Source: Dictyostelium discoideum
Lineage: Eukaryota
NCBI GenBank assembly: GCA_000004695.1
Contig: CM000151.3
Span: 6,816,001 to 6,880,000, forward strand
Direction of reading: 5' to 3'
DNA: 64,000 nt
The notes beneath the pieces were generated by a model. The model was not told the DNA's origin, made no database searches, and worked only from the letters and a program-made list of their open reading frames with translations. Every line of letters begins with the position of its first letter. Positions within the stretch are counted from its first letter, which is position 1. Shown here in pieces: positions 1 to 27,370 of the stretch. A program made the position numbers and the translations under genes.

Positions 1-2129
1 AAATTGATATAATAATTCAAAATAATAAACCATATCAAACAATTAAACAATTGTTTCAACTATTGGTTAATGAAACCAAATCAATTGTTTTATATGCCCG
101 TTATTTAAAAGAATATAATGAACTAATCGAAACCATTGAAACATGCCGTCAAATTCAATTATTGTTAATGTATTTCATGACAAAAACCTATAATACCAAT
201 GTATTAATGTTTCTATTGAAAAAAGATTTACATATCAAATTAACTTCGAACTATTGCGAACCATATCTTGATATTTTATTCGGATGTAATCAAATCGATA
301 AAACCAATATTATTATATTCTACAACACCTATAAATCACAAAAATCAATCATTGCGGAAGATATTGATAAAAAACCACTGGATGATTTAATATCAACAAA
401 GGATCTTGTTGATTTTGGTAATAAACAATTGCATTCAATTTTAGGTAATGAATCATCATCGAAATGGAAAGAAATTGCATCAAATCTAATTGATAATGAT
501 AAGATTGTTACAATTAAAGATAAAGAAACAATCGATTGGTTATCAGATATAGAAACAGGTGGTTGTAGTATTTTAAATATAAGAGATACTTTACATTCAA
601 AATTAAAACAAATGAAACTTGATTTTAGTACATCGGAATTATTAGAATATGCAAGAATCAAATTTAAACAAGTAATTCCAATTTTAGATTCAAATAAAAA
701 GTTGCCTAGTATCCACATTTTACGTACTCATGATGATATTGTATCATTAATCAATCGTTTAAATGAATCAAACTTTATTGATAATGAAAATTTATTTAAA
801 TATTATATGATTCAACTAATTCAATTTGGTTCAAGAAACTCAAATAAATACCAAAGATCAATTTGTGATAACGTTGGCGAGATTGATTTAGTTTTAGAAA
901 CCATGGTTGAACATTTTAATATTGAAGAATACTCCCAGGGAGCATACATTCAGGTTCACGACGATTTTAACAAATACAAAATACCAACTCAACAAATAAT
1001 CAATCTCTCTAAAATTAAAGTCAATGTCAATCACTTTCCAAATGCAACATCTTATTTACTTCAAACTTTTATCAAACTTTTAAATTTTGATGGTACTAAA
1101 TTTCTTCTTGATAATTCAAATGGTAAAAAATTATTATTTAATGAAAAAGCATTCAAAGATCGTTTTCACAATAGGATCTATATATCCAAATACTCATATA
1201 AAGGTTTAATAGATTTTATTCAATATTTAATTGATAAATTCTTAGAAGGTCCATTATCATTTACAAATTTATTATTGATACTGAATTTCTTATATTTAAA
1301 GTTAATAAGAGTCAATAATTTAACAATTGATCAAATTAAAACAGCATATCAATTAATATCAAACTATATTGAAATAAATCGTTCAAAACTCACATCATAC
1401 TATTATTTAAAAACATTATCACCAATTATTGCATCATGTATTACCGTTTGTGAAGATCCTACAGGTGAATATCCTACAAGTGGTTCTAAAAGAGAACGAC
1501 CATTCTTAAATTATGATATAGATACATCAGTATATACATTTGAATATATATTTTCAAATAGAACCAATGACGATTTGAACAAATTTATCGATTCAACAAT
1601 CATGGATATTGTAAAAGATAGTTATAATGTGGGAATGTTTTCTAAAATGTTAGATAATAATAATCCAAGAATTACTTTATTTTTACATTATCTTGAAATG
1701 GAATTGGAAAAAAGAAAGACAAACCAAATCAAAGAACCATTTTTAAATTATCAAATATTCAAATTAATAATTAAAACATTTGATATAGAATCATTTATTA
1801 AATTTGATAATTTATTACAACAAAATGAATTCCATATAATAAGAGAAAACCATAATGTTGTTAATGGTGAACAAGAGAATGCAAATGATTCAAGAGATGG
1901 TGAACAAAATGATATAAGTGATCATGGTGAACATGAAAATTTAACAATCAAAGAATTATTTTGTAATGGAGAAAAACCATTATTATCATCTAATATGGTT
2001 GAATGGTTAGGTGAAATTATAATTCACAAAGATTATTCAGATTATAAGGATATTATAAATTACTTATTCAAAAAATATGAACATCAATTGGGGACCACAC
2101 AACTTTTAATTAAAATCTGTACACATTAA
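1..2129 (+). CDS. Paralog A (partial, 5' end lies upstream of window) of a lineage-specific ~1070-aa protein family; C-terminal ~700 aa
   Basis: The reading frame is open from nt 3, and the listed TTG 'start' at 51 is internal. The translation (IDIIIQNNKPYQTIKQLFQLLVNETKSIVLYARYLKEYNE...) aligns colinearly with residues ~350-1068 of the minus-strand paralogs at 18384-21590 and 23123-26353. The stop is TAA at 2127-2129. No recognisable conserved domain. Confidence 0.8.
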   Translation, partial: IDIIIQNNKPYQTIKQLFQLLVNETKSIVLYARYLKEYNELIETIETCRQIQLLLMYFMTKTYNTNVLMFLLKKDLHIKLTSNYCEPYLDILFGCNQIDKTNIIIFYNTYKSQKSIIAEDIDKKPLDDLISTKDLVDFGNKQLHSILGNESSSKWKEIASNLIDNDKIVTIKDKETIDWLSDIETGGCSILNIRDTLHSKLKQMKLDFSTSELLEYARIKFKQVIPILDSNKKLPSIHILRTHDDIVSLINRLNESNFIDNENLFKYYMIQLIQFGSRNSNKYQRSICDNVGEIDLVLETMVEHFNIEEYSQGAYIQVHDDFNKYKIPTQQIINLSKIKVNVNHFPNATSYLLQTFIKLLNFDGTKFLLDNSNGKKLLFNEKAFKDRFHNRIYISKYSYKGLIDFIQYLIDKFLEGPLSFTNLLLILNFLYLKLIRVNNLTIDQIKTAYQLISNYIEINRSKLTSYYYLKTLSPIIASCITVCEDPTGEYPTSGSKRERPFLNYDIDTSVYTFEYIFSNRTNDDLNKFIDSTIMDIVKDSYNVGMFSKMLDNNNPRITLFLHYLEMELEKRKTNQIKEPFLNYQIFKLIIKTFDIESFIKFDNLLQQNEFHIIRENHNVVNGEQENANDSRDGEQNDISDHGEHENLTIKELFCNGEKPLLSSNMVEWLGEIIIHKDYSDYKDIINYLFKKYEHQLGTTQLLIKICTH

Positions 2130-2285
2130 ATTAATATTTTTCTAAATTAACTTTCCATAAATAATAAAGTATAAAAATAAAAATAAAATTTTTAAAAATG
2201 AAATTTCATTAATTAGTTATTTTTATTTATTTATTAAAACAAATTTACTTCTATTTATTGTATTTTTATTTTTTTAAATATTTAA

Positions 2286-3040
2286 TTAATTGTGAGTAAT
2301 AGTAGTGCCTAATAATTTAATGAATAATTGAATTAATTTTGGATGACATGGCCATGCTTTACCAGAAACGATATGACCATCAACAACAGCATCATCGACA
2401 GCGATATCTTGATAAATTCCACCAGCTTGTTGAACTTCTGGACGACATGCTGGGTATGCGGTACATTTAATACCTGAAACAATATTTGCAGCTGTTAAAA
2501 CTTGAGCACCATGACATACTGCTGCAATTGGTTTCTTATTTGTATTAAAATCTTTAACAATTTCAATAACTCTATCATCTAATCTTAAAAACTTTTTTTT
2601 TTTTTTTTTTTTTTTTTCATATTAGTATATTATAATATAATTTTCATTTTATTATTATTAAATGATTTGATTTAATACAAACCTCACTACAACGACCACC
2701 TGGTAAAAATAAACCATTATAAGTTGCAGTATCTACTTTATCAAAATCAAAGTTTAATTGAATTCTATGACCTTTTAATTCTGTATATGTTTGTTCACCT
2801 GTTTTTATTTTTTATTTTTTTTTAATTGGATTGCTAATAATAAAATAAATATAAAAAAGTAAAATAATAATACATACCTGGAAGGAAATCATGAATAGCA
2901 GTAACAATAAAATCACCACTCTTTTTACCTGGACTTACCAAATGAACGTTATATCCAACTAATTCTAACATTTGTTTAACTGCATAGGTTTCATAATCTT
3001 CTGTATAATCACCAGTGATAATTAAAATGTTTCTGGTCAT
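2286..3040 (-). CDS. DJ-1/PfpI family protein (class I glutamine amidotransferase-like), 3 exons: complement(join(2286..2591,2683..2798,2878..3040)), ~194 aa
   Basis: Exon 1 is MTRNILIITGDYTEDYETYAVKQMLELVGYNVHLVSPGKK...HDFLP, with donor G|GTATGT. Exon 2 is GEQTYTELKGHRIQLNFDFDKVDTATYNGLFLPGGRCSE, with donor GTTTGT. Exon 3 is FLRLDDRVIEIVKDFNTNKKPIAAVCHGAQVL...HN*. LFLPGG and AAVCHGAQ match the PfpI/DJ-1 nucleophile-elbow region (LLLPGG...AICHGP). Splice phases are consistent (1, 0). Confidence 0.7.
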
Positions 3041-3101
3041 TTTTGTTTTCTAATGCTTGAATGAATAAAATTTTATTAAATAATAATGTAAAGGAGTATT
3101 G

Positions 3102-3133
<32 letters not shown>

Positions 3134-26353: not shown

Positions 26354-26479
26354 TATAATTAATTTTTTTTACTTATTATTGTTTGTTGTTTGTGGGTTTT
26401 TTGAAAAAAAAAAAAAAAAAAAAAAAAAAAGATAAAAAAACGAAAAAAATGTTGCCTGTGCGATTTTAATTGTTCCTTT

Positions 26480-26572
26480 ATTTAAACCATTATAAAAAAG
26501 TTAATTTATTAAAAATAAATAAATAAATAAATAATATCTCAAATCTACTCTCCCTTAGGTGCTGAAAAATAG

Positions 26573-26610
<38 letters not shown>

Positions 26611-27370
26611 AAGAAAGAGAAATTATATGTAATCACTGTTGTGTATTCTTTAGTGCAATAAAATGATGTTTGAGTATCATTAAATTCAAAAGGTATTAAT
26701 TTTTGATATTGTAGATACCAAAGTACATCCACACTTGTATCTACACTTGGAACTATTTTTTCTGAATCTTCAAATATTGAGGTTGACGATATTGGAATAT
26801 TCGATATTATTTTCATCCTTTCTTTAATTTCTTCAATATCGCATCGATATCCTTTTAAAGTTAAATATTTCATAATGAAATAATTTCTTTCATTTTTACT
26901 ATGGTTTATTATGATTGGTGGACTCTTTAAAAAATTTTAAAACCTTTATTATTAATTTTGGATGATTATATAGGATGATTGAATCTATATATCCTGTATT
27001 AATATGGGTTTGTAATTTTTCTGGATGATATTTTAAATGAAAATCAAATAAATCTACCGATTTTGTACCCCAAATCCTATCGAATAAAATAGGATGATAA
27101 CTATCATCTTGATAACCTTTAAAAAGTAATAATGAATATATCTCTTTGAATACTTCTATATCTTTTATTTCATTAATGATTTTATTATTTCTATATGCAC
27201 CCTTAAAATTTATCAACAGTTGATATTGTTTATGTTTTAACATTGAATCTATTGGTGTGATGTTTTTAAATTTTTTACTTTTATGACAACATTTATTTTA
27301 TAATGTATAAATTTAATAAATATTTATTTTTAAAAACTTTCCAAAATAATGATTCATTATATTCATTATA
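26480..27370 (-). pseudogene. Truncated, frame-disrupted copy (psi-D) of the same family. It keeps only the region homologous to N-terminal residues ~1-270.
   Basis: ORF fragments at 26899-27243 (MLKHKQYQLLI...KDIEVFKEIYSLLLFKGY...DLFDFHLKYHPEKLQ) and 26490-26873 (...ISNIPISSTSIFEDSEKI...VLWYLQYQKLIPFEF) align to B/C residues ~45-260. The upstream piece reads MNIMNHYFGKFLKINIY*..NKCCHKSKKFK, with stops and frameshifts. Homology ends abruptly near 26480. Confidence 0.75.

Follow-up and report, generated by a model that had tools for sequence, protein, structure and literature searches.

The tgrB1 and tgrC1 genes of Dictyostelium discoideum are polymorphic, clustered and lineage-restricted. They control allorecognition, and the tgr proteins they encode are secreted or transmembrane, with Ig-like folds. 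Here, we describe a different clustered family, found in a 64 kb stretch of chromosome 2 from D. discoideum AX4 (hereafter, the window). Four members are present: DDB_G0276403 (copy A), DDB_G0276409 (copy B), DDB_G0276547 (copy C) and psi-D, a dead 5' remnant. Our overall reading, to which we attach a probability of roughly 0.55, is that these belong to a real, Dictyostelium-restricted coding family, housed in an old and dynamic cluster, whose products would have an intracellular scaffold role.

When copy B was used as a TBLASTN query, matches were detected at exactly four places in the 64 kb, corresponding to A, B, C, and psi-D; this search revealed no fifth locus in the window. Open reading frames (ORFs) and self-BLASTN agree. 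Hence, the initial annotation, which had listed four family members within 27 kb at nearly these positions, is borne out. Copy B is an intronless ORF of 1068 amino acids on the minus strand (18384..21590) and is 100% identical to DDB_G0276409 (P0001). Copy C, also on the minus strand (23123..26353), is an ORF of 1076 amino acids. Note that, in database gene models, C is lengthened at its C-terminus by splicing, so that the protein has 1101 amino acids in strain ACTFIT and 1180 in AX4. By self-BLASTN, B and C are 92.7% identical over 3400 nucleotides (nt), with positions 18296-21676 aligned to 23048-26432 and a period of ~4752. The repeated DNA amounts to ~3.4 kb per unit: the coding sequence, together with a 3' flank of ~75-88 nt and a 5' flank of ~79-86 nt. 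As defined by the extent of the alignment, the common 3' flanks are 18296..18383 (B) and 23048..23122 (C), and the common 5' flanks are 21591..21676 (B) and 26354..26432 (C), all on the minus strand. A promoter or 5' untranslated region role is presumed for the 5' flank of B. The units are separated by a unique, AT-rich spacer of 1.37 kb (21677..23047) that contains (TAAA)n and (AATA)n arrays and lies outside the repeat. Remnants of further copies were looked for in this spacer and none were found. Thus, of the head-to-tail units of ~4.74 kb first described, the period and the shared 3' flank are confirmed, but only ~3.4 kb of each is repeated.

Copy A (1..2129, plus strand) had been called an inverted partial copy. 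This is an effect of the window edge. The window start cuts the gene, leaving the C-terminal 708 codons (residues 335-1042), and the translation is identical to DDB_G0276403 (P0025), which is intact at its full length of 1042 amino acids. Self-BLASTN gives 83-85% identity between A and both B and C. The remaining member, psi-D, shares ~78% identity with B and C at their 5' ends. It is a frameshifted and truncated remnant of B codons 1-254 on the minus strand, with TBLASTN matches in three frames and a TAG-TAA pair; a fragment of it is annotated as the 114 amino acid ACTFIT_004373. While the earlier description of a 5' quarter with stops is accurate, its limits (26480-27370) are not. Homology spans only 26646 to ~27366, and positions 26480-26645, which have no homology to the family, are outside psi-D.

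Are the long frames genes? At the base composition of the window, an open frame of 1068 codons has a probability of ~4e-46. In copy B, 7.2% of all single-base changes would give a stop, and the copies are separated by ~230-510 substitutions. Without selection, the probability of the frames staying open is between 3e-8 and 3e-17. Hence, open frames need selection. We conclude that the long frames are held open by selection and that, as the initial annotation held, these are real genes.

The proteins have no recognisable domain, as had also been noted. Pfam gave no domain match for A, B or C at E <= 1, and no relatives were found with NCBIfam or a PDB sequence profile. Rfam, applied to positions 1-28000 of the window, returned nothing. 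A word-indexed protein search identified 31 proteins, none of them from outside D. discoideum and D. cf. discoideum. A profile hidden Markov model (HMM) search of 1.84 billion representative proteins gave 21 matches, and the full-length and named ones are all from Dictyostelium. These 21 comprise family members, or fragments, and three proteins of 76-102 amino acids that match only the first ~60 residues. The unnamed short matches fit the family profile strongly. Two of the three short proteins come from D. purpureum and represent mis-called first exons of ORFs that encode 1119-1153 amino acids. Of these ORFs, two are head-to-head in one contig (L002, GL870942.1; 3798-7157, minus strand, and 7896-11357, plus strand) and the third is in another (L003). 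One of the head-to-head pair is annotated only as a partial first exon of 76 amino acids, DICPUDRAFT_23830, despite an uninterrupted ORF of 1153 amino acids. Public gene models therefore under-call the family. Further D. purpureum homologues are DICPUDRAFT_100004 and DICPUDRAFT_83255.

Comparison of the N-terminal module between D. discoideum and D. purpureum gave an hhalign probability of 98%. With this module masked, three weak, collinear D. purpureum matches were obtained (E values of 0.0017, 0.017, and 0.22). By eye, both species have the motifs IIKDKExID, NYLFxxLI, and FxFEYIF. Since the D. purpureum homologues are also ~1100 amino acids long, the family is restricted to the genus rather than to the species. 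The original description as lineage-specific holds in the sense that only Dictyostelium proteins were found. The family is therefore present in at least two Dictyostelium species, and it evolves quickly outside the N-terminus. We also observed a 102 amino acid D. discoideum protein, DDB_G0273369 (P0047), whose N-terminal module is of the D. purpureum type, including the extra linker of ~15 amino acids. This hints at a second, older D. discoideum subfamily.

The full-length AlphaFold2 (AF2) model is all-alpha. For residues 1-250, modelled with D. purpureum sequences in the alignment, the predicted local distance difference test score (pLDDT) is 78 and the predicted template modelling score is 0.73. 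The nearest fold likenesses of this segment are alpha-solenoids of the ankyrin and TOG-HEAT type, for example IkB-alpha (1nfi_F) and the CLASP TOG domain (5nr4_B), and a Foldseek search with the N-terminal model returned nothing at E < 0.1. The models point to proteins made largely of helical hairpins, in which the N-terminal 250 amino acids most resemble ankyrin or TOG-type repeats. No signal peptide or transmembrane segment was detected; the N-terminus is charged and the maximum 19-residue Kyte-Doolittle score is 1.35-1.56. Hence, a cell-surface recognition role is unlikely. Each gene is predicted to encode a soluble, all-alpha protein of ~1050 amino acids. We suggest that such proteins would be intracellular protein-binding scaffolds or adaptors. 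The N-terminal module, kept between D. discoideum and D. purpureum, and an invariant central core would provide the docking sites for a shared partner, and the variable segments would set the paralogues apart. The process served would be dispensable and fast-evolving.

The genes were compared across nine full-length copies, taken from AX4 and from two wild strains. Between pairs of copies, synonymous divergence (dS) is 0.08-0.31 and the ratio of nonsynonymous to synonymous divergence (dN/dS) is 0.35-0.81. As first proposed, A has diverged the most among the copies in the window (dS of 0.28-0.29 to B and C; dN/dS of ~0.7). Conserved and hypervariable blocks alternate. Among all copies, identity reaches 94-98.5% in codons 1-60, 505-600 and 780-820, and falls to 51-77% in codons 208-280, 645-700, and 856-872. 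Helical blocks have dN/dS of 0.35-0.6. Conversely, pooled sliding windows give values of 1.0-1.3 at codons 189-247, 268-300, 719-777, 838-868, and 986-1028. Such patterns might be expected if diversifying selection acted on a polymorphic family with a role in recognition or defence. The proteins could sense bacterial effectors, or determine kin or mating incompatibility, with the variable cassettes providing specificity. The strain-to-strain variation in copy number described below, and the solenoid-like folds, which are typical of recognition proteins, are in keeping with this. However, a dN/dS near 1 is not above neutrality. Furthermore, the most variable blocks (251-290, 645-700, 856-872, and 980-1019) coincide with segments of AF2 pLDDT < 50, probably corresponding to loops or linkers. 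Hence, relaxed constraint suffices and positive selection is not required; if the models are right, a dN/dS of ~1 in the variable blocks fits relaxed constraint. The lack of a signal peptide or transmembrane segment also excludes a surface system like that of tgr. We consider a recognition family unlikely, and favour intracellular scaffolds.

Our next consideration is the age of B and C. Overall, B and C have dS of 0.09 and dN/dS of 0.68. In windows of 100 codons, dS varies from 0.0 to 0.3, and so is strongly mosaic. A nearest-neighbour scan showed that, in codons 1-111, 619-777 and 818-965, B is closest to FIR_6381 and C is closest to FIR_6378, both from strain ACTFIR. In codons 112-618, 739-855, and 966-1068, B and C are closest to each other. 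The divergent block of B (codons 619-777; 19260..19736, minus strand) is one example of the former. Here, the nearest sequence is the orthologue FIR_6381, not C, B/C identity is 80-82%, and dS is ~0.3; the block overlaps a low-confidence AF2 segment (630-709). At the other extreme, a run of 287 nt is identical in B and C (20980..21266 in B, 25743-26029 in C, minus strand) and serves as a marker of a gene-conversion tract. In the core, B and C differ at 1 of 294 nt. A GGT insertion at codon 541 is present only in B and C, and is absent from the orthologues. Since B and C have separate ACTFIR orthologues, the duplication predates the strain split. The high B/C identity elsewhere is then due to interlocus gene conversion.

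The obvious alternative is that B and C are young duplicates, with their 93% identity a simple reflection of age and psi-D a third young copy in decay. The head-to-tail arrangement, 92.7% identity, and short common flanks all suit this idea, as does a B/C dS of 0.09 compared with 0.29 to A. It is at odds with the separate orthologues, the mosaic dS and the 287 nt identical run, and with an insertion that the orthologues lack. In addition, the identity of psi-D to B and C is only 78%, whereas its identity to a different array gene, in another strain, reaches 86%. We therefore doubt that B and C are young, and the recent tandem amplification initially proposed is not upheld. Rather, with tracts in which the paralogue is the nearer sequence, and derived changes common to both, B and C were partly homogenised by interlocus gene conversion. 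On this sequence evidence, conversion seems to keep conserved blocks near-identical between neighbours, and loop-like blocks stay divergent.

We define the syntenic site as the array between adenylate-kinase-like and SYO1-like genes. In AX4 and ACTFIT, the site contains two genes and psi-D. In ACTFIR there are four genes and fragments, and ACTFIW has at least four genes, with two more by gene number. The gene that matches psi-D best at the nucleotide level (86%, over its 5' end) is FIW_4465, which stands first in the array of ACTFIW. Hence, psi-D is a remnant of the first array position, next to the SYO1-like gene. Copy number likely changes by unequal crossing-over and deletion. The cluster has tandem paralogues, pseudogenes, and gains and losses between close lineages. 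We conclude that it evolves by birth-and-death, the pattern originally inferred for this local cluster with a decaying member, to which the differences between strains can now be added. Microsatellites and long poly-T tracts, including (AAAAT)n, (TAAA)n and (AATA)n, occur in spacers adjoining family genes (27640-27700, 22176-22359, and 22647-22748). Misalignment or unequal exchange could take place at such tracts.

Family members are also found beyond the array. Immediately upstream of A, on the same strand, the near-identical strain ACTFIT has a counterpart of DDB_G0276401 (L004, 6808-9653). This occupies three frames and is split into models of 510 and 372 amino acids. In AX4, DDB_G0276401 is annotated as a single protein of 1024 amino acids. 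Either this is another copy in decay, or the AX4 model uses introns to span frameshifts. Elsewhere on chromosome 2 are DDB_G0271218 and DDB_G0271262, and the orthologue of DDB_G0276559 is ~70 kb from the array in ACTFIR, with further members. Two members are chimeric: DDB_G0271262 (P0029) joins a signal-peptide-like exon to family residues from ~365 onward, and in P0040 a C-terminal segment of the family is fused to ~290 unrelated amino acids. These may be products of exon shuffling or gene-model artefacts. In members of 1615-1630 amino acids, the C-terminal half is repeated from ~residue 495, which fits fusion of two neighbouring copies.

Decay of this kind raises the possibility of a weakly constrained orphan family that is drifting to loss and has no important cellular function. 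This would accommodate the overall dN/dS of ~0.67, the dead copy psi-D, the frameshifts of DDB_G0276401 in the sister strain, the fragmentary or chimeric members (P0029, P0032-P0044), and a copy number that varies freely. However, more than 20 full-length frames, each over 1000 codons, are open across strains, even though 7% of changes create stops. The constraint on helical blocks, and conservation of the N-terminal module between D. discoideum and D. purpureum, also speak against drift. Drift to loss thus seems improbable, and a family retained for a scaffold function remains our preference.

The central core, spanning amino acids 507-601 of B (19788..20072, minus strand), amino acids 506-600 of C (24554..24838, minus strand) and the segment SSKWKEI...RTHDD of A (456..737, plus strand), requires separate comment. 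Across all paralogues examined, its mean pairwise nucleotide identity is 95-98.5% and its dS is 0.01-0.06, compared with 0.2-0.4 elsewhere. Even the core of A differs from B and C at only 14-15 of 294 aligned nt, against ~16% divergence overall. Gene conversion is the simplest explanation for low synonymous divergence in the core. A related scheme is that the family is a polymorphic intracellular recognition system, for bacterial effectors or incompatibility, with exchangeable variable cassettes, and that the core is a recombination anchor or has a second, nucleotide-level function. We think this rather far-fetched, and continue to regard the core as part of a putative scaffold. An antisense, stop-free frame also covers the core (sense codons ~462-592), at 19864-20205 (plus strand), 24630-24971 (plus strand) and 329-718 (minus strand). 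While 130 codons long in most copies, this frame is interrupted in two of them, leaving 64 codons in FIW_4466 and 92 in FIR_6382, and has no ATG start in B and C. Hence, we rejected it as a gene and take it to be a by-product of conservation.

Several points weigh against our preferred reading. First, Pfam ankyrin profiles have no match at E <= 1 in A, B and C, and none at E <= 10 in the D. purpureum homologues or in the N-terminal segment. The solenoid resemblance thus falls short of ankyrin-family membership. Second, amino acids 505-600 are the most conserved segment and yet the least confidently modelled by AF2. This segment could be something other than a docking surface, and its low synonymous divergence could reflect constraint at the nucleotide level instead of gene conversion. 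Third, the overall dN/dS is high enough for constraint on the family to be weak and for part of it to be decaying. Finally, in the literature searched, none of these genes is named in any paper. The family genes are also absent from the supplements of a study of dictyostelid lineage-specific genes (PMC8535579), and we found nothing relevant in the literature on strain variation.

Two further explanations carry little weight. In the first, the proteins are SCF-type substrate receptors, whose N-terminal module is a divergent F-box that binds Skp1 and whose helical repeats recruit variable targets for ubiquitination. A short conserved N-terminal module, a variable repeat body, and birth-and-death dynamics are all familiar from expanded F-box families. 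Moreover, in our own reading of the sequence, LFWKVFxNxYLxxxI...ITSxxWM loosely recalls LPxEIxxxIxxxL...VSKxW. Against this, there is no Pfam F-box match even at E <= 10, and alignment of the N-terminus with six Pfam-validated F-boxes gave an hhalign probability of 0.15%. With Pfam, profile-profile comparison and the fold search all negative, an F-box is ruled out for this module, and we consider substrate receptors very improbable. In the second, the genes travelled as cargo within a mobile element, or are an endogenous viral insertion, and were amplified locally. The family is indeed orphan and multicopy, includes fragments and chimeras, and occupies more than one locus on chromosome 2. Yet copies are syntenic between housekeeping genes in four strains, the common flank is only 75-90 nt, spacers are unique, and terminal repeats are absent. 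Searches for transposase, reverse-transcriptase or viral domains were negative, and there are no relatives in IMG/VR viral contigs, or outside Dictyostelium among the 1.84e9 representatives. A mobile or viral origin has equally slim prospects. Lastly, false copies made by collapsed or duplicated reads, for which nothing speaks beyond the general risk of AT-rich repeats, can be dismissed with near certainty: 7% of positions differ between B and C, whose unique flanks are also distinct, orthologous copies exist in two further strains, and an independent assembly of another strain (GCA_054883475.1) has an identical layout at 99.3-99.7% identity, which excludes the assembly artefact that the initial annotation had named as a possible refutation.

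For completeness, the order of genes begins with DDB_G0276401 and A, both pointing forward, followed by DJ-1/PfpI, P4-ATPase and an 816 amino acid gene without a domain match. Next are alcohol-dehydrogenase-like and adenylate-kinase-like genes, then B, C, and psi-D, all pointing in reverse, and finally the SYO1-like gene and RPL10. Long, perfect (AAT/TAA)n arrays occur at 53211-53391 (plus strand), 35132-35270 and 63892-64000. The first has ~60 copies and is within a RapGAP-domain ORF (52201-54420), where it would encode a long poly-Asn tract typical of Dictyostelium. The sole tRNA in the window, tRNA-Lys(TTT) at 47248-47320 (minus strand), is distant from the family cluster.

If followed up, these genes would add uncharacterised, genus-restricted, large helical-repeat proteins to the fast-turnover genes of a model social amoeba. 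Across strains, the 10-kb array cleanly illustrates both gene conversion and change in copy number. There are also practical consequences. Near-identical tracts will confound short-read mapping and knock-outs in the region, and B and C should not be handled as young duplicates. That said, the evolutionary pattern is an ordinary one, and the genes are already annotated as hypothetical proteins.

How does the locus compare with known systems? Like tgrB1 and tgrC1, it is a polymorphic, clustered, and lineage-restricted D. discoideum family. Unlike the tgr proteins, its products are predicted to be all-alpha, without a signal peptide, transmembrane segment or Pfam (Ig-like) domains. With the expanded F-box families of plants and Caenorhabditis, it has in common tandem clusters, pseudogenes, copy-number variation, and a short conserved N-terminal module followed by a variable body. 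The difference is that the N-terminal module here is not an F-box. The closest parallel is the model of Nei and Rooney, which combines birth-and-death with concerted evolution. The cluster displays duplication, deletion, a pseudogene, and copy-number polymorphism; in some blocks orthologues are nearer than paralogues, and in others there is conversion. There is no difference in principle. We conclude that the cluster is an instance of known gene-family dynamics in an uncharacterised family.

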